Shown piece by piece: positions 5,636-34,783 of a stretch of DNA of 38,825 nt. The notes under the pieces are model-generated. The model was given only the letters and a program-made list of their open reading frames with translations, had not been told where the DNA came from and did no database searches. Every line of letters starts with the position of its first letter. Position 1 is the first letter of the stretch. The position numbers and the translations under genes were made by a program. The stretch is from Candidatus Portnoybacteria bacterium CG08_land_8_20_14_0_20_40_83. GTDB taxonomy: Bacteria; Patescibacteriota; Minisyncoccia; Portnoybacterales; GWB1-42-6. The stretch is from positions 1 to 38,825 of the forward strand of contig PEYL01000079.1 in assembly GCA_002774415.1 (NCBI GenBank), in the 5' to 3' direction.

Positions 5636-5983
5636 TTATATAAATTCAATAAAAACCACCGGTGCTCCGTCGCTCGATCGCTGACCGAGCTTCACAATTC
5701 TGGTATAACCGCCGGCCCGTTCTTTATATTTTGGCGCAATTTCTTTAACTAATTTATTTAAAGCTGTTTTTGGCAAAAATCTCTGGGCAAACCTTATGTT
5801 TGCCAAATCTCCTTTTTTCGTTTTTGTTATCAATCGCTCGGCAAGACCGCGGATTTCTTTTGCGCGCGCCTCGGTCGTTTTTATTTTTCCCTGCATAATT
5901 AAATTAATAACTAGGCTTTTTAAAAACGCCCGACGCTGGTCCCTCTTCTGTCCAAATTTTCTTCCTCTATTTTTATGACGCAC
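5636..5983 (-). CDS. rplQ: 50S ribosomal protein L17
   Basis: MRHKNRGRKFGQKRDQRRAFLKSLVINLIMQGKIKTTEARAKEIR...GGYTRIVKLGQRSSDGAPVVFIEF. It follows rpoA as in the alpha operon. Confidence 0.93.
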   Translation of the reverse strand: MRHKNRGRKFGQKRDQRRAFLKSLVINLIMQGKIKTTEARAKEIRGLAERLITKTKKGDLANIRFAQRFLPKTALNKLVKEIAPKYKERAGGYTRIVKLGQRSSDGAPVVFIEFI

Positions 5984-6004
5984 TTCTTTGTTTCCTTTCT
6001 CCTT

Positions 6005-6937
6005 TTATTCTTTTATCTCAAACCCGTATTTTTTGAAAATTTTCTTTATTTCTTTTATCCCTTTATCGCCCATTCCTTCGATTTCCTTGAGCGAGCTTTC
6101 ACTTTTTTTGCTCAAACCCCCCAAGGTCTTAATCCCTCCCTCAATCAATGCATTTATTGTCCTTGTGGAAAGCTTTAAGTCTTCAATTTTTATCTTCAAA
6201 ACGTCTTCCGACGCTTCTTCTTCGCGAATTTTTTGGCTTTGCTCTTCTGCTTTCTTTATTTCTAAAAATAATTTAAATTGATTGACCAAAATCTCGGCTG
6301 CCTGCGCAAAAGCTTCTTCGGGAGCGATGCTGCCGTCTGTTTCTATATCAATTTTAAGACGGTTAAAATCAGTTCTTTCTCCCACTCGCATATTTTCTAC
6401 TTCAAAATTTGCTTTAAGCACCGGAGTAAAAATTGCATCAATGGCAATCATCCCAATTTCCAATTTTTCTTTTTTTCTCCTCTCAACGGGAACAAATCCG
6501 AGGCCTTTTTCAACTTTTATTTCCATTTCTAGTTCCGATTTTTTATCAGTCAAAGTGGCAATAACGGCATCTTTATTTATTACTTCTACATCCGAACTCA
6601 CTTTAATATCACATGCTTTTACTTCTTTTTGTCCCTTTGCCGAAATAAAAACCATTACCGGCTGATCGGTGTATAATTTAAATCTGACTTTTTTTAAATT
6701 CAGTATTATCTCAATTGCGTCTTCTACAATTCCCGGTATTGTTGAAAATTCATGCTGCACTCCCTTTATTTTAAAACCGGTGGCCGAAGCCCCAGGCAAA
6801 GAAGAAAGAAGCACGCGGCGAAGGGCATTCCCTAAGGTTATGCCGTAGCCGGGATAGCAACCTTCAATTTCAAAAACTGCCCGATTGTCTTCTTTTTCAA
6901 TAACTTTTGGCGTTATGGGAAGTGGTATATTTTGCAT
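6005..6937 (-). CDS. rpoA: DNA-directed RNA polymerase subunit alpha
   Basis: 310 aa. NTD signature GYGITLGNALRRVLLSSLPGA. The C-terminal helix-hairpin-helix CTD reads IEDLKLSTRTINALIEGGIKTLGGL. Confidence 0.93.
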   Translation of the reverse strand: MQNIPLPITPKVIEKEDNRAVFEIEGCYPGYGITLGNALRRVLLSSLPGASATGFKIKGVQHEFSTIPGIVEDAIEIILNLKKVRFKLYTDQPVMVFISAKGQKEVKACDIKVSSDVEVINKDAVIATLTDKKSELEMEIKVEKGLGFVPVERRKKEKLEIGMIAIDAIFTPVLKANFEVENMRVGERTDFNRLKIDIETDGSIAPEEAFAQAAEILVNQFKLFLEIKKAEEQSQKIREEEASEDVLKIKIEDLKLSTRTINALIEGGIKTLGGLSKKSESSLKEIEGMGDKGIKEIKKIFKKYGFEIKE

Positions 6938-6950
6938 AGTTTTTTAAAAA

Positions 6951-7104
6951 GCGAGGGTATTGCCTCAAAAAACATCGCGCAACCGCGCCATTAAATTTTT
7001 CAACGGAATAGCTAATGCGCGGTGAGCGGCTCGGCAGCGGCTGGATTAAAACTTGTTTTTACATTTGACAGCCGACTGCGGTTTTTTGAGGCAATGCCCG
7101 AGCG
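6951..7104 (-). repeat. Structured intercistronic element, family A, copy 1 (rpsD stop to rpoA start)
   Basis: Outer stem 6955-6973 GGGTATTGCCTCAAAAAAC pairs with 7080-7099 GGTTTTTTGAGGCAATGCCC. Inner helix is 6982-6988 ACCGCGC / 7017-7023 GCGCGGT. The conserved blocks AACATCGCGCA and GCCGACTGCG are shared with the copies at 8531 and 13156. Confidence 0.85.
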
Positions 7105-7108
7105 TAGT

Positions 7109-7735
7109 TTATCTTGAATAAAATTCAACTACCAAACCCGCTGGATTTAAATCGCCTAAATCAGCGGCGCTAGGAATATTTAAAATTTTCCCTTCAATTT
7201 TTTCTTTTTCAAGCATAAGCCATTGCGGGGTTTCATATTTTTTTAAAATAGTAGGTAGATCTTTCATTAAATTCGATTCTTTTATTTTTGGACTCAATGA
7301 AATAATCTGATCTTTCTTTATTTGATAAGAAGGAATATTTATTCTTTTGCCGTTAACCAAAATGTGGCCGTGGTTGACAAGCTGGCGCGCCATTGTTCTT
7401 GATTTTGCCAATCCCAAGCGAAAAATAACATTGTCCAGGCGCGTTTCCAGTTTTTTTAATAAAATTTCTCTGGTATCACCCTGCGCTGCCATTGCCTGTT
7501 GTACATATTTTTTAAATTGTCTTTCTCGAATCCCGTAGATTCTTTTAATTTTCTGTTTTTCTGCTAATTGTTTACCATATTCAGATGTTCCGCCTCTCCT
7601 TTTCCTTGCTTTACCATGGATTCCAGGTGGGTCGGGCCGCTTAACCATGGCACATTTGGGACTAAAACAACGCTCTCCTTTCAAAAAAAGTTTCTCCCCA
7701 GCTCGGCGGCATTTTTTGCATTTTGGATCTGCCAT
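7109..7735 (-). CDS. rpsD: 30S ribosomal protein S4
   Basis: 208 aa. N-terminal zinc-knuckle CKKCRRAGEKLFLKGERCFSPKC. S4 domain LETRLDNVIFRLGLAKSRTMARQLVNHGHILVNGKRINIPSY. Confidence 0.93.
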   Translation of the reverse strand: MADPKCKKCRRAGEKLFLKGERCFSPKCAMVKRPDPPGIHGKARKRRGGTSEYGKQLAEKQKIKRIYGIRERQFKKYVQQAMAAQGDTREILLKKLETRLDNVIFRLGLAKSRTMARQLVNHGHILVNGKRINIPSYQIKKDQIISLSPKIKESNLMKDLPTILKKYETPQWLMLEKEKIEGKILNIPSAADLGDLNPAGLVVEFYSR

Positions 7736-7791
7736 ATTCGCTTTCGCTCAAATTAAAAATGTAAAATTAAAAAATCAAAATGACAAATCAA

Positions 7792-7891
7792 TCCTTCGAC
7801 TCTCTGGTCTTTAGGCCAGAGTATGCTCAAGATTGATACTGAGCGACGCCCATTCGACGTTGCTCAGGGCGTCCTGAGTGGAATCGAAGGA
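7792..7891. repeat. Multi-hairpin GC-rich repeat (TTCGAC...GCTCAGG type) in the rpsK-rpsD spacer
   Basis: Outer stem TCCTTCGA (7792-7799) / TCGAAGGA (7884-7891). Inner hairpins are CTCTGG/CCAGAG (7802-7807/7816-7821) and CTCAGG/CCTGAG (7863-7868/7873-7878). The core TTCGACGTTGCTCAGGGC resembles motifs at 24470-24488, 14790-14813 and 15468-15486. Confidence 0.7.
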
Positions 7892-7986
7892 CGCCTTTAT
7901 TCTCGCCCTTAAACGCGAGGTTTGGACATCATCAAATGTATCAAATTTTAAAATTAGCTAATGCTAAAATCAATTCTGAATTTCCT

Positions 7987-8030
7987 TCATTTTGCATTTT
8001 ATCCCGCTTAGCGGGATCATTTTGCATTTT
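7987..8030. repeat. 16-nt palindrome ATCCCGCTTAGCGGGA flanked by the 14-nt direct repeat TCATTTTGCATTTT
   Basis: Direct repeats lie at 7987-8000 and 8017-8030, with the palindrome at 8001-8016. The adjacent 18-mer TTTGCATTTTGATATTTG (8021-8038) recurs inside murB at 37063-37080. Confidence 0.8.
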
Positions 8031-8052
8031 GATATTTGATATTTGAATTATT

Positions 8053-8514
8053 TTACACCCTCCTTACTTTTCTCGGCCGACAGCCGTTGTGCGGTATCGG
8101 CGTTATATCTTTAATCGCTGAAATTTCAAGACCATGACTGCCCAACGCCCGGATTGCCGCTTCTCTGCCGCTGCCAATTCCCTTAACAAAAACTACAACC
8201 TCTCTGACACCCAATTTTTTAACTTTCTCCAAGACCGCCTCAACCACCTTTGAAGCAGCAAAGGGGGTTGCTTTCTTTGGACCCTTAAAGCCCAGTCCTC
8301 CCGAGCTTGCCCATGCCAAGACATCACCGTCCATAGTTGTCAGTGTCAGAATGGTATTATTATAGCTTGATTGAATAAAAGCCCTCGCTTTTTCAACCCT
8401 TCTTGATCTAATTTTGTCTGATCCTAAAACGGCTTTCTTTTGAGCAGCAGATAATTCCTGCTCTTCACGAAGCACATCTTGTTCAGATTGAGCAATAATT
8501 TTCTTTTTTCCCAT
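8053..8514 (-). CDS. rpsK: 30S ribosomal protein S11
   Basis: I prefer the ATG at 8514 (MGKKKIIAQ...). The track start at 8565 would translate the family A repeat. Core sequence: SSYNNTILTLTTMDGDVLAWASSGGLGFKGPKKATPFAA...VFVKGIGSGREAAIRAL...ITPIPHNGCRPRKVRR. Confidence 0.9.
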   Translation of the reverse strand: MGKKKIIAQSEQDVLREEQELSAAQKKAVLGSDKIRSRRVEKARAFIQSSYNNTILTLTTMDGDVLAWASSGGLGFKGPKKATPFAASKVVEAVLEKVKKLGVREVVVFVKGIGSGREAAIRALGSHGLEISAIKDITPIPHNGCRPRKVRRV

Positions 8515-8530
8515 AATTTTCTCTCTAAGA

Positions 8531-8681
8531 CGAGGCTTGTTGCGAGCAAAACATCGCGCAGCCACGCCCGCTATTTTTTTATTACTTTCTAAGGCGTGGC
8601 GAGCGTGAGCAGCAGCTGAATGATAACCTTATATTCTGAATCAACGGGCTGACTGCGTTTTTGCGAGCCAACAAACCGAGG
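8531..8681 (-). repeat. Structured intercistronic element, family A, copy 2 (rpsM stop to rpsK start)
   Basis: It shares AAAACATCGCGCAGC, GAGCGTGAGCAGCAGC and GCTGACTGCGTTTTTG with the other copies. The inner helix is GCCACGCC (8561-8568) / GGCGTGGC (8593-8600). It ends at the base next to the rpsM stop codon (8682-8684). Confidence 0.85.
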
Positions 8682-9071
8682 CTATGTTTTCTCCGCTGCC
8701 GGCCTTCTGCCAGAACCCATGGTCTTTCGAACATTTCCTCTCACGGTTCTGGTGTTTGTCCTAGTTCTTTGGCCCCTAACCGGCAGGCCCCTTATGTGGC
8801 GAACTCCGCGATAAGAACCAATGTCTTTCAACCTCTTTATGTTCATCATCCGCTCCCGCCGCAATTCGCCTTCGATCTTATATTTTTTTTCAATAATATC
8901 TTTTAATAAATTAAGCTGTTCAGCTGAAAGTTTATTTGCTTTAAGATTTAGGTCAATTTTTGCTTGACTTAAAATTTTACTGCTCAAAGAACGCCCGATT
9001 CCATAGATATGGGTTAAAGCAATCTCCATTCTTTTATTGTCCGGAATGTTTACTCCTGCAATTCTTGGCAT
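8682..9071 (-). CDS. rpsM: 30S ribosomal protein S13
   Basis: I prefer the ATG at 9071 (MPRIAGVNIPDNKRMEIALTHIYGIGRS...). The track start at 9095 is a TTG. The C-terminus is YRGVRHIRGLPVRGQRTRTN. Confidence 0.92.
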   Translation of the reverse strand: MPRIAGVNIPDNKRMEIALTHIYGIGRSLSSKILSQAKIDLNLKANKLSAEQLNLLKDIIEKKYKIEGELRRERMMNIKRLKDIGSYRGVRHIRGLPVRGQRTRTNTRTVRGNVRKTMGSGRRPAAEKT

Positions 9072-9182
9072 ATATATAAAATTTTCAATTACCAATTTTC
9101 AATTTCCAATCCAGTCCCGCGAAGCGGGATATTTTAGAAATTGGGAATTAGAAATTAGAAATTCTTTTGCGGAGCAAAAGCT

Positions 9183-9296
9183 TTATCCCTGTCTCTGTTT
9201 ATGTTTTTTATTTGAACAAATCACATAAACCCGTCCCTTGCGGTGGACAATCTTGCATTTTGCACAAAATTTTTTGACTGAAGCTCGTACTTTCAT
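9183..9296 (-). CDS. rpmJ: 50S ribosomal protein L36
   Basis: Too short for the ORF track. My translation from ATG 9296-9294 is [37 protein letters not shown], with stop TAA at 9185-9183. It sits in the expected slot between infA and rpsM. Confidence 0.9.
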
Positions 9297-9323
9297 ACTT
9301 TTTATTTTAGCTTCTATAAATAA

Positions 9324-9463
9324 ATCCCGTTACATCCGCCCCTTAGACAAGGTATTCAAGAAGTTCTCTTCTTTTTATTTTCCATTCACCCCGTTAGAAA
9401 TAAAATTTCTAACGGGGTTCATCCTTTGCCTAAAAGGCAGGGGATTTCTGGATGTAACGGGAT
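9324..9463. repeat. Nested palindromic element filling the infA-rpmJ spacer
   Basis: Perfect 14-bp terminal inverted repeats ATCCCGTTACATCC (9324-9337) / GGATGTAACGGGAT (9450-9463). They enclose a 14-bp-stem hairpin ACCCCGTTAGAAAT-aaa-ATTTCTAACGGGGT (9388-9418), which is a mini version of family B. Confidence 0.8.
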
Positions 9464-9524
9464 AAATCATAAAAAAGACGGATACAAAAGATTTTCATCT
9501 GTTATCCGCTTTAGATAATATCTG

Positions 9525-9746
9525 CTAAGATAACCGCTGAATAATTCTACCTCGACTTGAATCGTATAAGCTCAATTCCACTTTTACTCTATCTCCCGGC
9601 AGTATACGAATATAATTTAGCCGCATGCGGCCCGATAAATGAGCTAAAATCTCATCTCCATTCTCTACCCTAACCTTAAAAAGGGTACTGGGCAATGCTT
9701 CAATAACTTCTCCAATTTTTATAATTTTTTCTTTTTGGTTAGACAC
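9525..9746 (-). CDS. infA: Translation initiation factor IF-1
   Basis: 73 aa with an S1-like fold signature: [61 protein letters not shown]. Confidence 0.93.
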
Positions 9747-9828
9747 TCCTTGTTTTAGATTACTCTGTCTAAAATACTGCTAAGTTATCTGATTTTCCCC
9801 CATATTGGGCTTAGATAATCCTCGGTTT

Positions 9829-9857
9829 ATATTATAACGCAATTTAAAATTAGTCAA
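9829..9857 (-). promoter_or_regulatory. Possible promoter for infA whose -35 lies in the terminus of a family B repeat
   Basis: The minus strand reads TTGACT (9857-9852), then a 15-nt spacer to TATAAT (9836-9831) or a 17-nt spacer to TAATAT (9834-9829). This is about 80 nt upstream of the infA ATG. Confidence 0.35.
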
Positions 9858-9972
9858 CCCCGTTAGAAGTTTAACTCGCCGACTGCATAATCTCACAAAG
9901 GTAAGCCGTAGGCAATTCGATAAAGAATTATCTTCCCGCCTCAAAAACTAATTGAACTTCTAACAGGGTCAA
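9854..9972. repeat. Family B MITE-like element (TCAACCCCGTTAGAAGTT ... GAACTTCTAACAGGGTCA), copy 1
   Basis: ~18-nt terminal inverted repeats with an ~85-nt interior containing AGCCGTAGGC. An extra partial end TCAACCCCGTTG lies at 9969-9980. The second full copy is at 25116-25232. Confidence 0.8.
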
Positions 9973-10015
9973 CCCCGTTGAATAATTTTTTATGCAAATT
10001 AAAATTTTTCAATTT

Positions 10016-11815
10016 TTATTTAACGGAGTCAATAATGATATTAATTTTGTCAATCTGCTTGGGTATGCTTTTTGCCCAAAAGGGCCAAAGCGAAAATTGG
10101 GCTTCTTTTATTTCCTGACGACCAGATAATATTTGGCGTACCTCGCTTTGTTGCTTTCCGGCAATTAATTTTTTTATTTCTTCCTGATTCACCTTCCAAA
10201 TGATTTCTTGAGAACCGGCGACGCCGAAACTCATCTGGCCTTTGTCAATGTCGATTTTCATGTCTTTATAATTAAATGATATCTGATTAACCATTTCTTT
10301 GTTGCCGTCAAGATTATCAGATAAACTCCCCTGCAATAAACTATAAACATCTGCCTCTTTGAATACCAAGACCGTTGCCAAGCTTGTTATAGAAAGCATA
10401 AATTTTTCTGCTTTGCCCCCGACATCAACCGATGGTTTTATTTCGGTAATCTTTGTTTCAGTTGCGCCCTCCAAAACTTTCAGGTCACTGGAAATTTGCG
10501 CAGCTAAATCTGTCTGAATTTTTTGATTTAAGCTTTCCGAAATTTTGCTCTTGGCATTGTCAAAATCGTCTTGCGTTACAACTTTTACATTTTCGGTAGA
10601 ACCACCGCTCATTGACCCCTTCGATTTACCGTAAAATCCCGCATATTTTGGCGAGTCCTGAAAACCGGGGATTGAAAAATTGCTCGGCCCGATGTTATAG
10701 GCGGCACCCGGCTGATCTGCTTCAACATCAACATCCAGAAAGCTGGCCAAAATTTTGCCCTCTTCAATCTTTGCACCCGGAATCCTAATTGTTTTTGTCA
10801 ATCGGAATATTTTACCATCCTGTGAAAGAAACCGCGTTGTTTCTACCAATGCTTGGGGACTGGAACTGTAGGCATTATAAACTGTTATTGTCCCTTTGGC
10901 TTTTTCGTTTAATTGACGCCGGCCGGTAGCTAAAAATTCCTGGCTGTCTCTTTCCTCTAGTTTTACAAGCTGGGCGGGTATTTTATTTGAAGCTACATCA
11001 ATTTGCGATAAATTTTTATCGGCCAGTACTTTAAAATCAAACGGTATCTGCTCCCTTTTTGCAGTAATTGAAACGTCGGCTTTTGGCAAAACCAGATAAA
11101 AGATGACCCCGGCGATAATAATTGCAGAAATAATAAATATGCCAAAAATCTTTTTTGGAAATGAAGAAACAGTGCTGATTGCCTCGCGTGATTTTTCTTG
11201 ATTTTCAGCAGGATAAACAAGCGGTTTTTTTGCAATATCTTCTTGCTTATAAGACTTAATTTCAAAATTTTCTTTTATAGGAATACTCTCTTCTTTTTCA
11301 AAAATTTGTTGCTTGCCTAAAATTTTTGATTCTGTTTCCTCCCTATGCTCAAGCAATAAATCGGCTGATTTTTCAGAAATATCTTCAATTTTTTTTGTGG
11401 TCAATTTGCCAGGCGGAGGGGCTCCCGATTTAATGATATCGCTCATCCGCAAAGACGAAGATTTTTTTTCTTCCTTAAGAAATTTTTTAAATTCATCAGG
11501 CGTCACCTGTTCCTGCAAAATAGCGTCTTCCGGGCGCTCGAGATGCTCATCTAACTGTTCGGGTAGCGATTCACTCACTGAAAAACCCGTCTTTTTTGCC
11601 AGACGCTGCACAGCCGAGTCTTGAGAAACAATAGTAACTTTTTTTCTTAAATTATCTGCTTCCCTTTTTAGCAACTTAAGATTAACTAAACTCTGACTGA
11701 TTACTGCTCCCTCCGGTATCACCAAAAAAAGCTCCTCTTCTTTGGTCCTGATGAGTTTATCAATCACCGAAGTTATTTCTTCATTTGCGTTTATATAAAT
11801 ATTTTTTTCATTCAT
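10016..11815 (-). CDS. Hypothetical single-pass membrane protein (599 aa)
   Basis: Long ORF with a cytoplasmic N-terminal domain, an acidic linker, TM segment IFGIFIISAIIIAGVIFYLVL, and a large beta-rich C-terminal ectodomain. I cannot assign a family from sequence alone. Confidence 0.55.
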   Translation of the reverse strand: MNEKNIYINANEEITSVIDKLIRTKEEELFLVIPEGAVISQSLVNLKLLKREADNLRKKVTIVSQDSAVQRLAKKTGFSVSESLPEQLDEHLERPEDAILQEQVTPDEFKKFLKEEKKSSSLRMSDIIKSGAPPPGKLTTKKIEDISEKSADLLLEHREETESKILGKQQIFEKEESIPIKENFEIKSYKQEDIAKKPLVYPAENQEKSREAISTVSSFPKKIFGIFIISAIIIAGVIFYLVLPKADVSITAKREQIPFDFKVLADKNLSQIDVASNKIPAQLVKLEERDSQEFLATGRRQLNEKAKGTITVYNAYSSSPQALVETTRFLSQDGKIFRLTKTIRIPGAKIEEGKILASFLDVDVEADQPGAAYNIGPSNFSIPGFQDSPKYAGFYGKSKGSMSGGSTENVKVVTQDDFDNAKSKISESLNQKIQTDLAAQISSDLKVLEGATETKITEIKPSVDVGGKAEKFMLSITSLATVLVFKEADVYSLLQGSLSDNLDGNKEMVNQISFNYKDMKIDIDKGQMSFGVAGSQEIIWKVNQEEIKKLIAGKQQSEVRQILSGRQEIKEAQFSLWPFWAKSIPKQIDKINIIIDSVK

Positions 11816-11845
11816 GCTTTTTCTTCTAATAAATTTTTACTAAAA

Positions 11846-11883
11846 GCGGGACGACTACGGTTTTGCAAGTCAATAAACCGAGA
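11846..11883 (-). repeat. Family A half-copy (stop-proximal arm only)
   Basis: GCGGGACGACTACGGTTTTGCAAGTCAATAAACCGAGA aligns with 8645-8681 (CGGGCTGACTGCGTTTTTGCGAGCCAACAAACCGAGG). It abuts the ftsA-like stop codon at 11884-11886. Confidence 0.6.
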
Positions 11884-13146
11884 TTATGTCTGCATTAATC
11901 TGATGGCTCGGCGCAACATCGGCGCAAAAAGGCCCTCTTCTTCGCCCAGAAGCTGGGTCGATAAACTTGCCAGCGCTAAAGGAGTGACATCTTTCGGCTC
12001 TTTAAGCCTGCCTGTTTTATCTTCTATACTAATAATTTTGGCCGGGTCAATAAAATTAACTTCAGGCGCCTGTAGTACCGGCAAATCGTGAATCCATTCA
12101 CCGCTTTCCAATGCCTTTTTTATTCCCAACAGACTGCTTCCTCCTCCGCATAATAAAATTTTAGGAGGCAAAGGGCTTAATTTTGAAAATTCATTAAGTG
12201 CCAAATTAACCCCTGATAACCAGACTTTGATATCTTGACGAAAGATATCGGAAATTTTCTTTTTTACACCGGAAGAAATTTCCCCGCTGCTATATTTTAA
12301 TTTTATCTGTTCGGCTTGCGCAAAATCAAGCGATAAATTGTCGCAAAGCCTTTTTGTAAATGCTCTGCCGCCTAAAGCAAAAGATTTTATTCCTTCAAGA
12401 CCGCCTTGGCGCATAAGTGCTATATCGGTTGTGCCGCCGCCGATATCAATAAAGATCGCGTCGCCGCCGCCTTCTATATCAACTGAGCGCGCGATTGCAT
12501 ATGGCTCGGCCGCAATAAAAAGAAGTTCAAGATTTAAGGCTTTTGCAATAGAATTTATTGCGCCCAAATGCATCAGCGGCGCATAGGCATTAAAAACGCC
12601 TAAGGTTATTTCTCGTCCCTGAAATCCAAGCGGGTTGGTCACCTGGTATCCGTCAATTTTAACATCAACTATCGTTGCATTAATTAATTTTACCTCAATT
12701 TCAGAAATGCCGCTTTCTTCTGCCAAATCCTGCCTTATTTTATTAAACGCCTTCCATTGAATTTTCTGGATGATATTTTTTAATTCCGGCAGTTCAATTT
12801 TTTGCTTTTGGTCTTCTCTTTCGCAGGCAAAAGAAAAAGTTGCCCCTTTGACAAATTCGCCGGCAATTCCGATAACTGCCTGACTTATTTTCTCTTTAGC
12901 TTCTTTTTGCCCTGTTTCAATCGCCTTTCTGCAGGTTTGCGCCACTCCCGGAATATCAGTCACCGCTCCCGCTATCATATGAGAGGTTTTCTGAGGCTCA
13001 AAACCAGCTCCTATAATTTCTCCTTTTTTATTATTTTCGTCTATTCTGACGATCAGCGCTTTAACAAATTCCGTCCCGATATCCAAAGCTAAAAGGCAAT
13101 TGCCTTTTATTTTGCTTCTGCCTAAAATTTTATCAAAAAAACTCAT
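11884..13146 (-). CDS. ftsA: FtsA-like actin-family ATPase (cell division)
   Basis: LALDIGTEFVKALIV (phosphate 1), IFIDIGGGTTDIALM (phosphate 2), ILLCGGGSSLLGIKKAL (adenosine), and a C-terminal amphipathic tail LFAPMLRRAIRLMQT typical of FtsA membrane targeting. PilM cannot be fully excluded. Confidence 0.7.
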   Translation of the reverse strand: MSFFDKILGRSKIKGNCLLALDIGTEFVKALIVRIDENNKKGEIIGAGFEPQKTSHMIAGAVTDIPGVAQTCRKAIETGQKEAKEKISQAVIGIAGEFVKGATFSFACEREDQKQKIELPELKNIIQKIQWKAFNKIRQDLAEESGISEIEVKLINATIVDVKIDGYQVTNPLGFQGREITLGVFNAYAPLMHLGAINSIAKALNLELLFIAAEPYAIARSVDIEGGGDAIFIDIGGGTTDIALMRQGGLEGIKSFALGGRAFTKRLCDNLSLDFAQAEQIKLKYSSGEISSGVKKKISDIFRQDIKVWLSGVNLALNEFSKLSPLPPKILLCGGGSSLLGIKKALESGEWIHDLPVLQAPEVNFIDPAKIISIEDKTGRLKEPKDVTPLALASLSTQLLGEEEGLFAPMLRRAIRLMQT

Positions 13147-13155
13147 TTACTTTAA

Positions 13156-13321
13156 GGCGAGGGCACCTGCCGAGAAAAACATCGCGCAGCTGCGCTCAAT
13201 AATAACTTGCTTTTTCCAAGTCAATACTTAGCGCAGCGAGCGCTGAGCAGCGGCCAGCTGATAACTGCCTTTTACTTTTTTCGGGCCGACTGCGTTTTTT
13301 GGAGGCAGATGACCGAGCTCC
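13156..13321 (-). repeat. Structured intercistronic element, family A, copy 3 (alaS stop to ftsA-like start)
   Basis: It carries AAAAACATCGCGCAGC, GAGCGCTGAGCAGCGGC and GCCGACTGCGTTTTTTGGAGGCA. The inner helix is GCTGCGCT (13189-13196) / AGCGCAGC (13230-13237). It ends 1 nt from the alaS stop (13323-13325). Confidence 0.85.
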
Positions 13322-13322
13322 T

Positions 13323-15200
13323 TTATTCTAAAACTGCTTTTATTCTTCTGGCTCCCGCGCTCACCGATTCTTCTTTTAAAATTTTAAAATGACCCAGCTG
13401 TCCTATCTTTTCAACATGCGGCCCTCCGCATATTTCCTTACTAAATATTTTACCATTTTCAGCGATTGTGTAAACCTTAACTTTTTCCCCATAGCGGGAT
13501 TCAAAAACTCCCATTGCTCCCTGCTCTTTTGCTTCGTCAAGACTCATTTCTTCCATTTTAACTGGCAAGTCCCGAACAATTGTCTGATTCACCAAATCTT
13601 CAACTTGTTTTATTTGCTCCAGTGTCAACTTTTGGGGATGAGAAAAATCAAAACGCAGACGCTCGGCTGTAATATTTGAACCTTTCTGGGTTACATGGCT
13701 TCCCAAAACCTGCCGTAAAGCCGCCAGCATCAAATGCGCGGCGGTGTGATATTTTACCACGTGCTCTGAATGGTCTGCCAACCCGCCCTTAAATTTCTGC
13801 TCTGCACCAGCGCGGGAAAGTTCCTGATGTTTTTTCAAAGATTCATGAAATTGCTGTAAAATTCTATTTTCATCATCTTTCGTTAATTCGGTAATACTAA
13901 CTCCTTGTTCACGATTATATTCTTGATATAATTTTTTAATTTCCTCAAGACTCATTTCTATCGGAAATCCATATGTAGAATAGAGATTAAATAAAACATC
14001 GCCACTTAATCCATATTCTGTAAAAAATGATTTTGAGAGAAAAGAAATAGTTTTTTTTGGCTTCATTTTTTCAAGCACCTTCAGCCCCTTTTCTAGCGTT
14101 TTAGTAAATTTTTCCTCCTCTCTTACTAATTGTTCTTCAATAAACATACGATTACTGGATAGTTCCAGATAAACATCCCGATACATTTCAATCACCACAT
14201 TCGCGATTTTAAAAGTAAAAATATCATTTATGCCGAGTTGTTTGCCATACCGCACTGCTCTGCGTATAAGACGACGGAGCACATAACCTCGTTCAACATT
14301 AGACGGTTCAACTCCTTCTGCCAAAATAAATGTCGCCGCTTTCAAATGATCAGCAATAATTCTGAATGTTTTAATATTTTCTCCTTCGTATTTTTTATTG
14401 CTGATTTCTTCTATTTTTTTAATAAGAGGTTTAAATAATTCTGTGTCGTAAACATTGTCAAAACCGTCAAGAACAGCGATTGTGCGCTCAACGCCCATGC
14501 CCGTATCAACATTTTTTTGTTTTAGCTGCTCAAATTTTCCTTCCGCAGTTTTGTTAAATTCCATAAAAACATCATTCCAGATTTCCGCGTATTTTCCGCA
14601 TTTGCAGCCGGGTTTGCAATCGGAACCGCATTTTTCTTTTCCCGTGTCATAAAACATTTCAGAACAAGGCCCGCAAGGCCCGGTTTGCCCGGCCGGCCCC
14701 CACCAATTTTCTTCTTTGGACAAATAAAAAATCCTCTCTTTGGGAATGCCTAAACTTTCCCATATCTTAGCTGACTCTTCATCGCGGGTGGCTTGCCCTG
14801 AGTTTATCGAAGGGTCACCGGCGAATACCGTGACGCTTAACTTTTCAGACGAAATTCCTAAATAATCTCTACCGGTTAAAAACTCAAAACTCCATTCAAT
14901 CGCTTCTTTTTTCCAATAGTCGCCAAGCGACCAATTACCCAGCATTTCAAAAAAAGTCAGATGCCAGGAATCACCTACATCATCAATATCTCCTGTCCTT
15001 ATGCATTTTTGAACATTAACCAATCTTTTTCCGCCAGGATGCTTCTCGCCCAAAAGGAACGAAGTTAAAGGATGCATCCCCGCAGTCGTAAAAAGCACGG
15101 TTGGGTCGTGCTCTGGGATTAAAGAGGCCGAAGGAATGATAGCGTGGTCTCTTTCTTTGAAAAAATTCAAATATTTTTCACGGAGTTCATTCGCGGTCAT
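13323..15200 (-). CDS. alaS: Alanine--tRNA ligase, short form lacking the C-terminal C-Ala/DHHA1 region
   Basis: I prefer the ATG at 15200 (MTANELREKYLNFFKERDHAIIPSASLIP...). The track start at 15236 is a TTG. The catalytic core FTTAGM...WGPAGQTGPCGPCSE...FMEFN is present, as is the editing-domain pair HTAAHLMLAALRQVLG and CGGPHV. At ~625 aa it is shorter than the ~870 aa of typical bacterial AlaS. Confidence 0.9.
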   Translation of the reverse strand: MTANELREKYLNFFKERDHAIIPSASLIPEHDPTVLFTTAGMHPLTSFLLGEKHPGGKRLVNVQKCIRTGDIDDVGDSWHLTFFEMLGNWSLGDYWKKEAIEWSFEFLTGRDYLGISSEKLSVTVFAGDPSINSGQATRDEESAKIWESLGIPKERIFYLSKEENWWGPAGQTGPCGPCSEMFYDTGKEKCGSDCKPGCKCGKYAEIWNDVFMEFNKTAEGKFEQLKQKNVDTGMGVERTIAVLDGFDNVYDTELFKPLIKKIEEISNKKYEGENIKTFRIIADHLKAATFILAEGVEPSNVERGYVLRRLIRRAVRYGKQLGINDIFTFKIANVVIEMYRDVYLELSSNRMFIEEQLVREEEKFTKTLEKGLKVLEKMKPKKTISFLSKSFFTEYGLSGDVLFNLYSTYGFPIEMSLEEIKKLYQEYNREQGVSITELTKDDENRILQQFHESLKKHQELSRAGAEQKFKGGLADHSEHVVKYHTAAHLMLAALRQVLGSHVTQKGSNITAERLRFDFSHPQKLTLEQIKQVEDLVNQTIVRDLPVKMEEMSLDEAKEQGAMGVFESRYGEKVKVYTIAENGKIFSKEICGGPHVEKIGQLGHFKILKEESVSAGARRIKAVLE

Positions 15201-15345
15201 TAGCAATAGTTTAACACAAAATCTTGTGCTTGCCAATAAAAACCATTCTTCTTTTTTCCCTCTCCTCTCGTATTTCCAAGAAGGTCTTTCCGTCGCGAAG
15301 GACTTTTATTTTTTTACAGTAATGTTTCATTTTGATACGATCGTA

Positions 15346-16621: not shown

Positions 16622-17194
16622 ATGCTCAGCTATAGCGATTTAAGACCCGGCGTCTTTTTTATTTTAGACGGACAGCCTTATGAGGTGCTGGAATTTTCGT
16701 TTTTGCGCATGCAGCAAAGAAAGCCGGTTGCCCAGACAAAAATAAAAAATCTTATATCGGGAAAAATCATTAGCCGTAATTTTCAGCCCAATGAAACTTT
16801 CCAAGACGCCAATATTAATTATAAAGACGTAAAATTTCTTTATAACCATCGCGAAAAATTTGTTTTCTGCGAAATTAACGACCCTTCAAAAAGATTTGAA
16901 TTGGAAGAAAGTCAGATCGGCGAATTAAACAAATTTATGAAACCCAATAGCGAACTGGAAGTAATTGAATTTAATAATAAAATTATAAATATTGCCCTGC
17001 CAATAAAAATGGATTTTAAAGTCATTGAGGCGCCGCCCGGCATCAAAGGCGATACGGCCCAAGGCGGCACCAAAGCGGTCAAAATAGAGACCGGAGCGAC
17101 GATAAATGTGCCTCTCTTCATAGAAGAAGACGACATCATCAGAGTAAACACCCAAACTAGCTTGTATACGGAACGAATAGAAAAATCAAAGTAA
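16622..17194 (+). CDS. efp: Elongation factor P
   Basis: 190 aa: LRPGVFFILDGQPYEVLEFSF...KFLYNHREKFVFCEINDPS...APPGIKGDTAQGGTKAVKIETGATINVPLFIEEDDIIRVNTQTSLYTER. The modification loop is atypical (see findings). Confidence 0.9.
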   Translation: MLSYSDLRPGVFFILDGQPYEVLEFSFLRMQQRKPVAQTKIKNLISGKIISRNFQPNETFQDANINYKDVKFLYNHREKFVFCEINDPSKRFELEESQIGELNKFMKPNSELEVIEFNNKIINIALPIKMDFKVIEAPPGIKGDTAQGGTKAVKIETGATINVPLFIEEDDIIRVNTQTSLYTERIEKSK

Positions 17195-19100: not shown

Positions 19101-19118
19101 TTATTTTTTCCTTCTTTA

Positions 19119-19262
19119 GCGTAAAGCAAGCGGCTTCTGGAACCATCGAGCGACGAGCGGGCATGGTATCCCGACGAAGCGTCGGGACGAGCGAGGAGCT
19201 CGCTGGAGCAGAAAATTCCCGCTGGGAATTTTCTGAGTTTCCAGAAGCCGCTTGCTTTACGC
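19119..19262. repeat. 144-nt multi-hairpin element closed by a perfect 24-bp inverted repeat
   Basis: GCGTAAAGCAAGCGGCTTCTGGAA (19119-19142) is the exact reverse complement of 19239-19262. The interior has hairpins CCCGACG-aag-CGTCGGG, GAGCGAG-gagc-TCGCT and GAAAATTCCC-gct-GGGAATTTTC. It lies between the membrane-protein stop (19271) and the ATPase start (19100). Confidence 0.85.
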
Positions 19263-19270
19263 CGCTTCCC

Positions 19271-21580: not shown

Positions 21581-21650
21581 ACACGGAAACGCCCACACGG
21601 ATATTATTATATCGGGGTCATCCGTGTGTAATCCGGGTATCAGTGTCGCT
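21581..21650 (-). promoter_or_regulatory. Conserved ~70-nt leader motif, copy 1 (upstream of the HTH/membrane/ATPase operon)
   Basis: By hand alignment, 56 of 70 positions are identical to 35602-35670. The hairpin is CACACGGAT (21594-21602) / ATCCGTGTG (21620-21628). It lies downstream of the promoter-like site at 21668-21696. Confidence 0.5.
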
Positions 21651-21667
21651 TTTTTTTAATTACCTAA

Positions 21668-24648: not shown

Positions 24649-24969
24649 TTACCATCTAGAACCGCCGCCGAAACCTCGGCCGCCGCCGCCGCGATTAAAA
24701 TCTCGGCGAGGAGGACGAGCCTCCATTGGGCGTGCTTCGTTGACTGTCAGTGTGCGACCATCGAGTTCCTTGCCATTTAAAAGCTCTATTGCTTTTGCCG
24801 CTTCCTCTTCGGAAGACATTTCGACAAAACCAAAGCCCTTGGAACGGCCGGACATTTTGTCCACGATAATTGTCGCGGTTTCAACAGTGCCAGCCTGAGA
24901 GAAAGTATCTTTCAACGTATCCTCAGTGGTGCTGTATGACAAACCACCAACGTATAATTTCTTTGCCAT
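24649..24969 (-). CDS. RRM-domain RNA-binding protein with an RGG tail
   Basis: I prefer the ATG at 24969 (MAKKLYVGGLSYSTTE...). RNP-2 is LYVGGL, RNP-1 is KGFGFVEM, and the C-terminal tail is RRDFNRGGGGRGFGGGSRW. The upstream 28 codons of the track ORF lack any matching pattern. Confidence 0.88.
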   Translation of the reverse strand: MAKKLYVGGLSYSTTEDTLKDTFSQAGTVETATIIVDKMSGRSKGFGFVEMSSEEEAAKAIELLNGKELDGRTLTVNEARPMEARPPRRDFNRGGGGRGFGGGSRW

Positions 24970-25091
24970 TTTGTTGCTTAAACTTATTAATTTATTTATG
25001 TAAGGCGACCTCTCATTTGAATTCTTTGGCCGCTTACACTTAATAATTAGCATAGGGCAAAGAAACTTATTGAGAAACTTACAATATATTC

Positions 25092-25353: not shown

Positions 25354-25569
25354 TTAAGGAATGGGATAATAGCCGTCCTGACCAAACTCAAGCGTCACGC
25401 CGTCAGCCACGGAAAATATGGGATATTTCTCGGATTAGGCTAGGCAGTCTTCCTGCAAATGGACGAGGTCTATGAATTTTTCCCAATCCAAATTTTTATC
25501 CTTCAGCACTATTTCCAAAAATTCTCTCCCCGCCGGCTCCAAAATTTTAAAGATTTTAAGATTTTGCAT
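25354..25569 (-). pseudogene. Small reading frame (71 sense codons) interrupted by one in-frame TAA; possible decayed gene
   Basis: Starting from ATG 25569, the frame reads MQNLKIFKILEPAGREFLEIVLKDKNLDWEKFIDLVHLQEDCLA, then TAA (25437-25435), then in the same frame SEKYPIFSVADGVTLEFGQDGYYPIP and TAA (25356-25354). I recognise no family. Confidence 0.25.
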
Positions 25570-25575
25570 ATTCTA

Positions 25576-25596
25576 GAAATTTCGATATATCGATAT
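25576..25596. repeat. Left 21-bp inverted repeat bracketing the four-helix-bundle gene
   Basis: GAAATTTCGATATATCGATAT is the exact reverse complement of 26085-26105. Confidence 0.85.
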
Positions 25597-25610
25597 TCCG
25601 AAATATTATG

Positions 25611-26078
25611 TTATTCCTCTTTATAGAACTTCTCATAAATCTCCGGCGCGGTTGTTTTTAAAATTTCTTTCATCGGATCCTCTCTTTCAACGCGCTTAAA
25701 TTGTATTCCCTGGCGCGAGCCGCCTTTAACTTTATACGCGAAACTTTGGATTAATCGCGAACATTCATCGCATAATTTCAGACCGCGCTCCATATCTTTG
25801 TCTAAAACATAATGCCTGTCGTACGCCAAATACAACTGACTCCTTGCTTCTCCGACCTCACCCTTGGCAATGAATAAGGCATCAATTAATTCCGACCGCG
25901 TCCCTCTGTCAAATCCTTCCGCAATATTGGACATTGGCGATATGATAGTTTTGCGGATGTGCCATTTCAATTTTGGGTCTTTAAATATCGGCTTATCGGT
26001 AATGTCAAAAATAAAATTGGCCAATTCTCTTGTTTTCTGCCAGCAAATTAAGTCTTCAAATTTTTGTATTGTCGCCAT
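25611..26078 (-). CDS. Four-helix-bundle protein (23S rRNA intervening-sequence protein family)
   Basis: 155 aa: FEDLICWQKTRELANFIFDIT...IRKTIISPMSNIAEGFDRGTRSELIDALFIAKGEVGEARSQLYLAYDRHYV...LIQSF. This is the characteristic pattern of the family. Confidence 0.8.
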   Translation of the reverse strand: MATIQKFEDLICWQKTRELANFIFDITDKPIFKDPKLKWHIRKTIISPMSNIAEGFDRGTRSELIDALFIAKGEVGEARSQLYLAYDRHYVLDKDMERGLKLCDECSRLIQSFAYKVKGGSRQGIQFKRVEREDPMKEILKTTAPEIYEKFYKEE

Positions 26079-26084
26079 TTTTAC

Positions 26085-26158
26085 ATATCGATATATCGAA
26101 ATTTCGACATATTGAAATAATATTCCCGCGACATATCGAAATCTTGAAATATCGAAAC
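26085..26158. repeat. Right 21-bp inverted repeat plus an array of ATATCGAAA(T) units upstream of the four-helix-bundle gene
   Basis: ATATCGATATATCGAAATTTC spans 26085-26105. Further units follow: CATATTGAAAT (26108), ACATATCGAAAT (26131) and AATATCGAAAC (26147). The array occupies the entire ASCH-stop to 4HB-start spacer. Confidence 0.8.
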
Positions 26159-26159
26159 G

Positions 26160-26504
26160 TTATTTTAGTTCAAACGCAATTATTCCGTATTTTTTGATTT
26201 TTTCTTTATAATTAGGGAAGTTCCAATAAACTTGGCGCAGCTCTTGCTCAGTTGAAACCCACGGATTAACTTGCCTGATTTTATATTTTTTCAGCATTGC
26301 TTTTATTGTTTTAAAATGCCGTACGGCTTTAACTACGTTTTCAAATCTTTGTTTTCCGCAGACTAAAACAATCCTGTCCCCGGCACGGATATTCTTAAAT
26401 TTTTTCGTCGCCGCGCGCGTTTCAATCTTTTTGCTGCCGTTTTTAATCGCTTCAAAAATATCTCTATTCACTGCGCGGAATTTTAATGTTGTATTTTTCC
26501 CCAT
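26160..26504 (-). CDS. ASCH (PUA-like) domain protein
   Basis: 114 aa. LKFRAVNRDIFEAIKNGSKKIETRAATKKFKNIRAGDRIVLVCG and the overall size fit ASCH-domain proteins. Confidence 0.6.
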   Translation of the reverse strand: MGKNTTLKFRAVNRDIFEAIKNGSKKIETRAATKKFKNIRAGDRIVLVCGKQRFENVVKAVRHFKTIKAMLKKYKIRQVNPWVSTEQELRQVYWNFPNYKEKIKKYGIIAFELK

Positions 26505-29763: not shown

Positions 29764-29770
29764 GTTCTTT

Positions 29771-29810
29771 TGTAGGCGCCGCCCCGACGAACGTCGGGGC
29801 GGCGCCTACA
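29771..29810 (-). promoter_or_regulatory. Perfect 19-bp GC-rich hairpin in the secA leader, ending 7 nt before the AUG
   Basis: TGTAGGCGCCGCCCCGACG-aa-CGTCGGGGCGGCGCCTACA. The core CCCGACGAA(G)CGTCGGG also occurs at 19168-19184. The two overlapping track ORFs here are palindrome artefacts. Confidence 0.6.
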
Positions 29811-29823
29811 TTTATTCTTTATA

Positions 29824-29851
29824 ATTGTACCCCCATTTGACAAAAAATCAA
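29824..29851 (-). promoter_or_regulatory. Possible secA promoter
   Basis: The minus strand reads TTGATT (29851-29846), a 16-nt spacer, then TACAAT (29829-29824). This places the transcription start just upstream of the 40-nt palindrome. Confidence 0.4.
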
Positions 29852-29857
29852 CGCTTG

Positions 29858-29881
29858 AAAAAAAACGGGTCAAAACCCGTT
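29858..29881 (-). terminator. Intrinsic terminator ending the polyamine operon
   Basis: The minus strand reads AACGGGT-tttg-ACCCGTT followed by TTTTTTTT. It lies 29 nt after the speB stop. Confidence 0.7.
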
Positions 29882-29909
29882 ATCGCACCTCAGAAAATAT
29901 TTATTAAAA

Positions 29910-30848: not shown

Positions 30849-30855
30849 AAATTAA

Positions 30856-32154: not shown

Positions 32155-32202
32155 CTGAACTATTTTGGGCTTTGATTTTATTTTTTTTGGGAAACCTCGG
32201 AT

Positions 32203-32631
32203 TTACTGAAAACCGTTGGAATAATTACCATAATCTACTGTTAATTCTTCTCCTTTTTTGATATCTCTTAAAGCAAAAAATTCTTCCCCGTCTTTATCTA
32301 TTACATTTGGATTATCGGAACGGTTCAGAAAAAAACTAATATCAATTTCATTCAAGCTAAAATTTGGCAAATAAAGCTTCCTCTTCGTGATAACATAAAA
32401 ATCCTTCACCATTTTTTTAATTTCTTTATTAATTTTTTGATTTTCAAAAACTAATTTTGGATTAACGGCAATAAACTTTGTTTTTCTTGTAAGCTTGAAG
32501 ATATTAGTGCCCTCTGGAATATCCCTGACAGCAAATACGCCCACACCTTCTATTTTTGATGGTCTCAATCTACAATAAATGTTCTCTTCTAAATCTTTAA
32601 TAATTTTTCTGATAATCTTTTTATCGGTCAT
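32203..32631 (-). CDS. SET-domain methyltransferase
   Basis: 142 aa: GVGVFAVRDIPEGTNIF, FLNRSDNPNV (in place of NHSCxPN), and FALRDIKKGEELTVDYG, the canonical SET C-terminal motif. Confidence 0.7.
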   Translation of the reverse strand: MTDKKIIRKIIKDLEENIYCRLRPSKIEGVGVFAVRDIPEGTNIFKLTRKTKFIAVNPKLVFENQKINKEIKKMVKDFYVITKRKLYLPNFSLNEIDISFFLNRSDNPNVIDKDGEEFFALRDIKKGEELTVDYGNYSNGFQ

Positions 32632-32668
32632 ATCTTTTAATAATACAAAAATTATATGTCCAATAATT

Positions 32669-33589: not shown

Positions 33590-33635
33590 AGAATTATTTC
33601 GACGATTAGGAAGTTTTTTATTAACAAGTTTTTAT

Positions 33636-34721: not shown

Positions 34722-34744
34722 GCCAATGTAATTAAAATTTATTC

Positions 34745-34783
34745 ACCCTGTTAGATGCGGCTACGCCGTCTATCTAACGGGGT
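34745..34783. repeat. Family B mini-hairpin in the pdaD-DHS spacer
   Basis: ACCCTGTTAGAT (34745-34756) pairs with ATCTAACGGGGT (34772-34783), with one G-U pair. It is followed by a CGAAATTTCC/GGAAATTTCG hairpin (34796-34830) and a GAGGCGGG/CCCGCCCC hairpin (34851-34870). Confidence 0.65.

Follow-up and report, generated by a model that had tools for sequence, protein, structure and literature searches.

The question raised by this locus is whether the long structured elements between its genes are regulatory RNAs of the operons in which they lie or mobile DNA that is carried along within them. The stretch analysed here (the window) comprises 38,825 nucleotides of contig PEYL01000079.1 from Candidatus Portnoybacteria bacterium CG08_land_8_20_14_0_20_40_83 (assembly GCA_002774415.1), and it is matched by contig MNWG01000037.1 of GCA_001872385.1 (Parcubacteria group bacterium CG1_02_40_82, Candidatus Portnoybacteria, Crystal Geyser aquifer). 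Three of its stop-to-start gaps, rpsD-rpoA, rpsM-rpsK and alaS-ftsA-like, are each filled by an element of 150-170 nt that we call type A. An initial annotation had taken the compensatory base-pair changes between these copies as a signature of selection on a regulatory mRNA structure. Our analysis shows that type A is an undescribed family with a covariation-backed structure, and that the elements are not a regulator specific to rpsD, rpoA, rpsK or ftsA. The reading that we favour, with a probability of roughly 0.7, is that type A is a new non-autonomous mobile DNA element of the bacterial MITE (miniature inverted-repeat transposable element) kind, inserted at stop codons inside operons.

Fold and covariation of type A

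All genes around the elements lie on the minus strand, and their assignment by Pfam agrees with the names given earlier (rpsD, rpoA, rpsM, rpsK, alaS and FtsA-like; Table 1). The three full copies and the half copy described before are all present, and their gaps are indeed filled, as the elements begin 0-6 nt past a stop codon and finish 5-10 nt ahead of a start codon when the flanking TAA or TAG is set aside. A covariance model (CM) built from the three full copies scores them at 163-193 bits and the rest of the window at no more than 21 bits, and the 13-mer TGCGCGATGTTTT has exactly three occurrences. The half copy stands directly 3′ of the FtsA-like stop codon TAA (11884-11886), so that 3.5 copies are clustered within 6.4 kb. 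Rfam gave no match at the gathering threshold over the whole window (riboswitches, ribozymes such as hammerhead, twister and pistol, and ribosomal-protein leaders included), only a chance PreQ1 match (E = 0.43) for 6900-7150, and nothing at E ≤ 0.1 for six further loci; as far as RNA families are concerned, the earlier statement that no described motif matches therefore stands. ARAGORN found 0 transfer RNA or transfer-messenger RNA genes in the window, copy 3 had no BLASTN match in plasmid or phage collections, a pattern scan of viral contigs gave 0 matches, and a literature search on intergenic repeats or MITEs of the Candidate Phyla Radiation (CPR) or Parcubacteria found no report. The shared fold, the CM scores and the absence of an Rfam match together confirm the element as such.

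RNAalifold predicts a three-way junction in which a closing stem, P1, encloses a 5′ hairpin, P2 (GCAGUCGGC...GCCGCUGC, with a bulged U), and a 3′ hairpin, P3 (CGC-UC-GCCGCGC...GCGCGGC-U-GCG). The junction strand J3/1 reads GAUG and is followed by a U4-6 tract that pairs with the A-tract of P1. P1 is an imperfect stem of 20-24 bp; the sequence TCGCTC is present at both ends on the same strand, as a direct repeat, which places a conserved UC/UC internal loop, and hence mismatches, inside the stem. The outer stem of 19 bp reported before includes a G.T pair because it was read on the plus strand; the coding strand has an A.C mismatch at that position. Two closing-stem subfamilies can be told apart, alpha (CGCTCGGGTATCGCCTCCAAAAA) and beta (CTCGGYTTATTGRCTCGCAAAA), across which the junction core is nearly invariant and far better kept than P1 itself; the invariant nucleotides include an AUG, the bulged U of P2 and the UC/UC loop, and one core was found with at least three different closing stems. 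Part of this apparent conservation is an ascertainment effect, since the search patterns demanded core blocks.

The pairing is well supported. In the RNAalifold fold both sides have changed in 12 of 38 pairs among the three window copies, which bears out the compensatory changes noted earlier (the inner-helix variants quoted then are correct), and over 25 distinct copies standard pairs make up 92.5% of pair cells, with double changes at 19 of the 38 pairs. None of 500 shuffles matched the observed pairing or covariation values, and pairing in slid controls is 32-52%. For copies that occupy one site in different genomes, identity is 82-88% at paired and 50-59% at unpaired positions, and compensatory A-U to G-C changes are seen between them. 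The type A fold is genuine and is maintained by compensatory changes.

If this fold were selected in the mRNA, the sense strand might be expected to be the better folder. It contains 13 G.U pairs against 33 A.C mismatches (each of which is a G.U pair on the complement), and the antisense strand folds more stably in 20 of 23 copies, by a mean of 7.8 kcal/mol; after dinucleotide-shuffle correction the antisense keeps an advantage of 3.5 kcal/mol (p = 0.002). Since the copies are not independent (nine alpha copies, for example, have one C.A mismatch in common), the strand test amounts to no evidence for selection on the mRNA strand and is not proof for the other. Three further palindromic families, B, C and D (see below), are without such asymmetry.

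Two functions that the transcript could have by itself were considered. The initial annotation saw no open reading frame (ORF) in the elements; in fact the invariant AUG in the junction motif GCGAUG (6970-6981, 8548-8560 and 13176-13188, minus strand, and all other copies) opens frames of 5-20 codons, the peptides of which are not conserved. These frames often end -4 to +10 nt from the downstream start codon, in four loci (L018, L029, L103 and L143, where L marks a locus retrieved from another genome or a metagenome) they extend into the downstream gene in its own frame; several gene callers took the junction AUG or nearby codons as false starts. A conserved micro-ORF was rejected because peptide and frame vary with U-tract length and four copies enter the downstream gene. 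The second is a transcription terminator or insulator, in which P3, AUG and U5 on the sense strand, and P2′, GG and U5-6 on the antisense, would stop transcription. An A-tract and a U-tract border the GC-rich hairpins in every copy, and in L073 a short alternative hairpin with CGATGTTTTT is called terminator-like. The earlier statement that the elements lack a U-tract terminator shape needs a correction: a U4-6 tract does follow P3 and the AUG, yet a terminator scan of 5900-13500 calls nothing there, as the hairpin loops are long (20-45 nt), and the canonical arrangement (GC-rich stem, 3-8-nt loop, U-tract within 2 nt) is absent at P2 and P3 of the three window copies. Termination would also be harmful, since copies lie inside essential operons upstream of rpoA, rpsK, rplB and others, and we regard this explanation as highly improbable.

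Table 1. Positions of the window features and gene contexts of type A (A) in the retrieved loci
Feature	Locus	Position	Strand	Remark
rpoA	window	6005-6937	-	Pfam
Copy 1, type A, rpsD/rpoA gap	window	6951-7104	-	alpha-like closing stem; CM 176 bits; fold z = -5.1
Copy 1, P1 5′ arm	window	7081-7103	-	
Copy 1, P2	window	7034-7079	-	
Copy 1, P3	window	6976-7030	-	
Copy 1, junction AUG and U-tract	window	6970-6981	-	
Copy 1, P1 3′ arm	window	6951-6973	-	
Copy 1, 5′ flanking triplet	window	7109-7111	-	rpsD stop TAA
Copy 1, 3′ flanking TAA	window	6944-6946	-	then 6-nt leader AAAACT, rpoA ATG 6935-6937
rpsD	window	7109-7735	-	Pfam
rpsK	window	8053-8514	-	Pfam
Copy 2, type A, rpsM/rpsK gap	window	8528-8681	-	beta closing stem CTCGGTTTGTTGGCTCGCAAAA; CM 163 bits; fold
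Copy 2, 5′ triplet of duplicated pair	window	8682-8684	-	rpsM stop TAG
Copy 2, 3′ duplicated TAG	window	8525-8527	-	then native 10-nt leader AGAGAAAATT 8515-8524, rpsK ATG 8512-8514
rpsM	window	8682-9095	-	Pfam
599-aa gene	window	10016-11815	-	
Truncated type A copy	window	11846-11883	-	beta-type 5′ arm and start of P2 only
FtsA-like gene	window	11884-13146	-	Pfam
Copy 3, type A, alaS/FtsA-like gap	window	13155-13322	-	CM 193 bits; fold z = -4.7
Copy 3, flanking triplets	window	13323-13325, 13152-13154	-	TAA and TAA, then AGTAA and ATG
alaS	window	13323-15236	-	Pfam
Type B element	window	19101-19270	-	four hairpins enclosed by a perfect 24-bp closing stem; z = -8.5
S14-A-S8-A-L6	L096			
S12-A-S7	L079, L131, L145			
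L24-A-L5	L103			
L23-A-L2	L082, L157			
L36-A-S13-A-S11	L139			
S4-A-RpoA-A-L17	L108, L121			
RpoA-A-L17	L029			
HisRS-A-HIT	L014			
Histidine kinase-A-response regulator	L018			
?-A-HypC-like	L072			
Membrane protein-A-?	L097			
A-Tyr/TrpRS	L143			
rplW-rplB	L082, L157, L158			type A, TAA..TAA (L082); type A, TAG..TAG (L157); decayed, TAG..TAG (L158)
rpsN-rpsH	L096, L157, L158			alpha (L096); unrelated 330-nt element (L157); beta (L158)
rpsH-rplF	L096, L157, L158			beta (L096); type A 5′ arm fused to type B element (L157); pure type B (L158)
rplX-rplE	L103, L157, L158			type A (L103); type D (L157); type C (L158)

Occupied and empty junctions in related genomes

Two model-filtered pattern scans, one of species-representative genomes and one of metagenomes, provided most of the relatives. 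Both patterns required core blocks; the genome pattern yielded 20 loci, 17 of them chance matches in GC-rich genomes, and most of the metagenome matches listed are likewise chance matches. After filtering, at least about 25 distinct copies remain, at about 21 sites in Portnoybacteria-like metagenome-assembled genomes and metagenomes, and two later copies were obtained by synteny alone. So far type A is confined to Candidatus Portnoybacteria-like Parcubacteria. Gene contexts established by ORF analysis and Pfam (Table 1) show a strongly uneven placement. Among the matches listed, 20 sites carry the element in sense and 1 in antisense orientation (p = 2e-5), at least 12 sites are in ribosomal-protein or aminoacyl-tRNA synthetase operons, and across copies P1 follows the stop codon by 0-6 nt and precedes the start codon by about 8-20 nt. 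Five loci (L079, L096, L097, L121 and L139) have paired copies within 0.6-4.4 kb.

This placement would suit a host-useful RNA, a generic intercistronic three-way junction copied to many junctions, where it might mark the mRNA for processing or stability (through RNase III in P1, or by protecting 3′ ends), act as a stop-to-start shunt or re-initiation device, or bind a global regulator of translation genes. The sense orientation, the operons occupied, the flush fit between stop and start, the invariant junction nucleotides and the covariation, including the A-U to G-C changes in orthologous copies, all speak for it. Against it, the lone antisense site (L073/L036) fills a stop-to-start gap too, which disposes of the idea that antisense copies are tolerated at operon ends alone; in addition, the mRNA strand folds less well, and the mini-ORF peptides and frames are not conserved. 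A narrower version, autoregulation by ribosomal proteins with S4, S7 or S8 sites at some junctions, was rejected because the element also occurs at hisS, alaS, nifS-nifU and kinase-regulator junctions.

The decisive comparison is one by synteny. Homologues of RpsD led to seven syntenic loci (L148-L155; 71-95% protein identity), a retrieval free of core-pattern bias, in which the CM search covered L148-L151 and the junction sequences of L152-L155 were checked by direct inspection. An intact type A copy was present at none of 21 site observations for the three window sites in these seven relatives. The sites are instead empty (9-10 nt), hold a 5′-half remnant (L148, alaS-ftsA) or carry an unrelated palindrome of family C or D. 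The clearest case is rpsM-rpsK in the nearest relative, L152/L153, the coding DNA of which is 92-94% identical to that of the window: L152 is empty ('...gaaaacgTAA AGGAAAAAAT ATGggg', that is, TAA + 10 nt + ATG), and the window is filled ('...gaaaacaTAG [CCTCGG...154 nt...CGTCT] TAG AGAGAAAATT ATGggaaaa'). Read side by side, this pair shows an insertion that has a stop codon on both sides and retains the 10-nt leader. At rpsD-rpoA, L152 holds a different palindrome of 74 nt, a type D element (CTACGAAATACGAA...ATTCGTAATTCGTAG) that is also found at this junction of L154, L149 and L150, and at alaS-ftsA L149 is empty, with a 9-nt spacer.

The S10-spc clusters retrieved with S8 homologues, L157 (Crystal Geyser Portnoybacteria population) and L158 (the organism of L148), behave in the same way (Table 1). 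We take L157 as the window's own population because its coding sequences are about 93% identical to those of Ga0153916, a Rifle-type population and sister of the window. Although L096 and L157 are 92-95% identical in coding DNA, they are unlike at the junctions compared, and the beta copy at rpsN-rpsH of L158 is almost identical to the beta copy at the neighbouring rpsH-rplF junction of L096, the rpsN-rpsH copy of which is alpha. In copies inside one metagenome the arms are identical at 21 of 21 positions. Truncated and decayed copies are common in the sample free of pattern bias, and L097:8083-8330 is a chimera of a type A arm and a type B interior. Finally, among the matches listed 15 of 24 copies have the same triplet on both flanks, and the association of TAG with TAG and of TAA with TAA has a Fisher p of 0.022.

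Together these data show that the element is dispensable, with junctions that are empty or hold unrelated elements in genomes of 92-94% identity, and we consider the host-useful RNA unlikely. The earlier inference from compensatory changes to selection on a regulatory mRNA structure does not survive either: the sites are not conserved in the seven relatives, the element sits at many unrelated junctions, and the duplicated stop triplets, the truncated, decayed and chimeric copies, the excess of A.C over G.U and the more stable antisense strand all count against it.

A probable mobile element at stop codons

Insertion polymorphism, duplicated triplets and dispersal over unrelated junctions argue for mobile DNA rather than a cis-regulatory RNA tied to a gene. 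The same reading is favoured by paralogues that resemble each other more than occupants of the same site do, by truncated, decayed, nested and chimeric copies, and by the presence of at least four further families in the same niche. The outcome that had been named as refuting the first proposal, a plain MITE inserted at random with respect to genes, applies by half, as the element is MITE-like and its positions are highly non-random.

In the mechanism that we propose, type A would choose a TAA or TAG for insertion, which in practice means the stop codon of an intra-operon gene, and the target triplet would end up on either side, so that the upstream gene keeps its stop and the downstream gene its A-rich leader and start. 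The element would then be transcribed passively within the operon mRNA, where P1 would shut the insertion of about 150 nt into a compact three-way junction and leave stop and start about as near in space as they were before. Insertions are probably tolerated even in ribosomal-protein operons because P1 brings stop and start together. As most genes here lack a Shine-Dalgarno sequence, no special ribosome-binding site would be lost. A GGAGG-like Shine-Dalgarno is seen in only about 3 of 35 window genes, with leaders that are short and A-rich, and because most window genes are without GGAGG anyway, we discarded its loss downstream of an element as a signal. Mobilisation would be in trans, by an enzyme that may recognise the asymmetric ends (A-TCGCTC-GGG ... 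CCC-TCGCTC-T), the invariant junction core or both. Possible side effects on the mRNA include cutting of P1 by RNase III and a partial stop to transcription at the U-tract.

Several observations weigh against this reading. The window contains no transposase or recombinase with matching ends, about 170 kb of related loci with gene annotation include no annotated partner enzyme, and no solo arms flanking longer cargo or a transposase were seen in any retrieved locus. The closing stem, the supposed terminal repeat, is variable and the internal core near-invariant, the reverse of a typical MITE, with the reservation that most copies were found by patterns requiring the core. A 20:1 sense bias is not predicted by symmetric transposition of double-stranded DNA, the sites are enriched in translation operons and locally clustered, and the compensatory changes between orthologous pairs hint at constraint in place. 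The triplet pair would also look much the same if an element with TAA or TAG (TAR) at its own end had inserted immediately 3′ of the stop codon.

A rival reading is a strand-specific single-stranded-DNA element, REPIN/RAYT-like or derived from IS200/IS605, in which a HUH-type enzyme would read the bulged hairpins on one strand, cut beside TAR and insert 3′ of it, the triplets then being target and cleavage motif and not a true duplication. The strong strand specificity of orientation, the TCGCTC direct repeat at both ends with conserved mismatches in P1, the invariant bulged hairpins on stems that need only pair, and the unequal fold stability of the strands would all follow; the outermost ends CTCGGG...CCCTCG are common to type A and type B copies, and HUH enzymes are known to recognise hairpins of this sort (PMC3116915, PMC6006769). 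Yet the TAG/TAG and TAA/TAA correlation is predicted by a staggered-cut duplication rather than by a fixed cleavage motif, none of the retrieved loci showed a Y1/HUH gene, there is neither a REP doublet nor a GTAG head, and the better-folding antisense would be the leading-strand template only if the operons are co-oriented with replication. We judge this model to be a rather improbable one. Equally doubtful is a bolder idea, that the core of type A and the equally invariant cores of its sister families are active RNA or single-stranded-DNA modules of a new class of strand-specific, stop-codon-homing element. The core could recruit the ribosome, a termination complex or a dedicated nuclease to TAA/TAG, or be a self-processing or shunt-promoting RNA; if true, this would account for the 20:1 sense bias, the flush stop and start, the enrichment in translation operons and the exchangeable stems on a fixed core. 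Single-stranded-DNA mobility and an exapted RNA role both retain some weight next to the MITE-like element because of the invariant core, the TCGCTC ends, the sense bias, the clustering and the lack of a partner enzyme.

CPR genomes are small and densely packed. In the Portnoybacteria lineage, nearly every junction of the S10-spc-alpha and aminoacyl-tRNA synthetase operons nevertheless holds a palindromic insertion of 70-330 nt, and two genomes of 92-94% identity differ at almost every junction examined. These insertions form a fast-evolving layer of the genome that annotation misses. They affect gene calling, as start codons are mis-set beside several copies, and also strain typing and models of operon expression and translational coupling in organisms largely without Shine-Dalgarno sites. 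Type A offers a concrete and tractable case of mobile DNA in essential polycistronic mRNAs, in which insertions spare the stop codon and the downstream leader. It is also a caution, since covariation alone cannot tell a regulatory RNA from a structured mobile element; the more interesting result is the rapid turnover of several families at core translation-operon junctions of a streamlined CPR lineage.

Sister families, neighbouring features and known systems

The families that occupy the same junctions as type A number at least four (B, C, D and others) and are unrelated to it. The type B element of the window (Table 1) fills the gap between a 393-aa gene and a TrwB/DUF87-like gene, and its core of about 40 nt (UCCCGACG..CGUCGGGA..ACCAUGCCCGCUCG) recurs in L097, L157 and L158. 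Type C (about 190-240 nt; AGGGCTTTGTCC...GGTAACAAAACCTTTACCCC...GGGGTGCTCAATG...AAATTTAAACAACATTGGC) occurs in L148, L149, L152, L154, L155 and L158, where it begins right after a stop codon and ends right at the next ATG, and a type C 3′ end (aattacattggcATG) stands ahead of the deoxyhypusine synthase gene in the window (34722-34902, minus strand). Type D is 75-120 nt long, has the sequences given above and is rich in ATTCGTA repeats; it is found in L152 (2255-2328), L154 (several), L150, L149 and L157 (8855-8930), and in relatives its junctions are rpsD-rpoA, rpsM-rpsK, rpoA-rplQ and rplX-rplE.

Hairpins crowd the 317 nt of the rpsK-rpsD gap (7736-8052, minus strand), together with short A/T-rich repeats (AAATATCAAATATCAAAATGCAAAATGA, ATCCCGCTAAGCGGGAT); an element of 330 nt at rpsN-rpsH of L157 resembles it, and the hairpin ATCCCGC..GCGGGAT recurs at 9115-9131. 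Within 9096-9300 (minus strand) there is an unlisted rpmJ (L36) at about 9182-9295, and the rpmJ-rpsM spacer carries AATTTCTAATTTCTAATT repeats like those found between alaS and ftsA in L154 and L155, a hint of one more family. Two other gaps, upstream of a sigma-70-like gene and of the arginine decarboxylase gene, have a direct repeat of 51 nt in common (21607-21657 and 35627-35677; 80% identity; GGGTCATCCGTGT..ATC.GTGTCGC). The 146-nt gap upstream of secA (29764-29909, minus strand) has a strong GC hairpin (GCCGCCCCGACGTTCGTCGGGGCGGC) and weak type A model matches of 11-12 bits. A gene for a '23S rRNA intervening sequence protein' (PF05635; 25611-26078, within the region 25569-26164) is bracketed by a perfect 21-nt inverted repeat (25576-25596/26085-26105) and ATATCGA(A/T)AT repeats, and has the look of a small cassette of its own. 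L157 has two genes inserted between rplC and rplD of its S10 operon (1790-2523), one for a DUF559 (Vsr-like endonuclease) protein and one, on the opposite strand, for a DUF7352 protein. Three genes that lie close together in the window encode deoxyhypusine synthase (33636-34721), pyruvoyl arginine decarboxylase (34903-35580) and an arginase/agmatinase-family enzyme (29910-30848), with an EF-P gene elsewhere (regions covered: 29910-35580 and 16622-17194); they form a hypusine-like set that is unusual for bacteria. The window also encodes a SET-domain protein (32203-32631) and an RRM-domain protein (24649-25053).

Among known systems, attC, dif and DNA-uptake-sequence identities were rejected on sequence inspection. 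Integron attC sites do resemble type A in being folded imperfect palindromes right after stop codons, in uniform orientation, but type A has no R''/R' core sites (RYYYAAC/GTTRRRY) and no integrase, its flanks are core housekeeping genes and not cassettes, and the central part that varies in attC is conserved. The functional strand of attC is the one opposite the mRNA. Palindrome-associated elements derived from IS200/IS605 would have subterminal hairpins and strand specificity, and would insert 3′ of a fixed short target without duplicating it; type A is strand-specific and has a TAR 5′ of every copy, its flanking triplets co-vary, in favour of a duplication, and no TnpA gene was seen. REPINs, which are mobilised by RAYTs, are likewise short palindromic extragenic repeats that form within-genome populations and are recognised as single-stranded hairpins (PMC3116915); type A is a three-way junction without a doublet of 20-40-nt REP units or a GTAG head, no RAYT gene was found, and it lies inside operons, whereas REPINs lie at operon ends.

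Bacterial MITEs are the better fit. They are described as elements of <200 bp with terminal inverted repeats, TA termini, target-site duplication and stem-loop transcripts that are co-transcribed with the neighbouring genes (PMC2229807). Type A, with its 150-170 nt and only 5-20-codon non-conserved frames, falls within the size limit for such non-coding elements (<~300 bp; PMC2229807). P1 corresponds to an imperfect terminal inverted repeat of 20-24 bp, atypically more variable than the interior; duplication of the target, usually TA-containing, is indicated by one clean empty/filled pair and the flank association (p = 0.022), and dispersal and polymorphism by at least about 25 copies at about 21 sites with differing occupancy between genomes of 92-94% identity. 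RUP of pneumococcus and other MITEs mobilised by IS630 or IS5 are also small and non-coding, with insertion-sequence-like ends and TA-containing targets (PMC2229807, PMC3049150); type A differs in its apparent 3-bp (TAA/TAG) duplication at a stop codon, its strong orientation bias and the lack of an identified partner insertion sequence.

Correia (NEMIS) elements of Neisseria resemble type A: they are 100-155 bp long, with terminal inverted repeats of about 24 bp, TA duplication and transcription with their neighbours, and their stem is an RNase III substrate (PMC2229807). Their terminal repeats are conserved, where in type A the closing stem varies around an invariant interior, and they carry IHF sites and promoters, neither of which is seen in type A. 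ERIC (IRU) elements of enterobacteria and Yersinia have no sequence similarity to type A, form a single long hairpin in place of a three-way junction with an invariant core, and occur in both orientations, not reported flush with stop codons nor concentrated in ribosomal-protein operons. They are nonetheless imperfect intergenic palindromes of about 127 bp with TA termini and target-site duplication, and their effects depend on orientation (PMC2229807). ERIC and Correia elements, which are likewise co-transcribed in operons, are the closest functional counterparts of type A.

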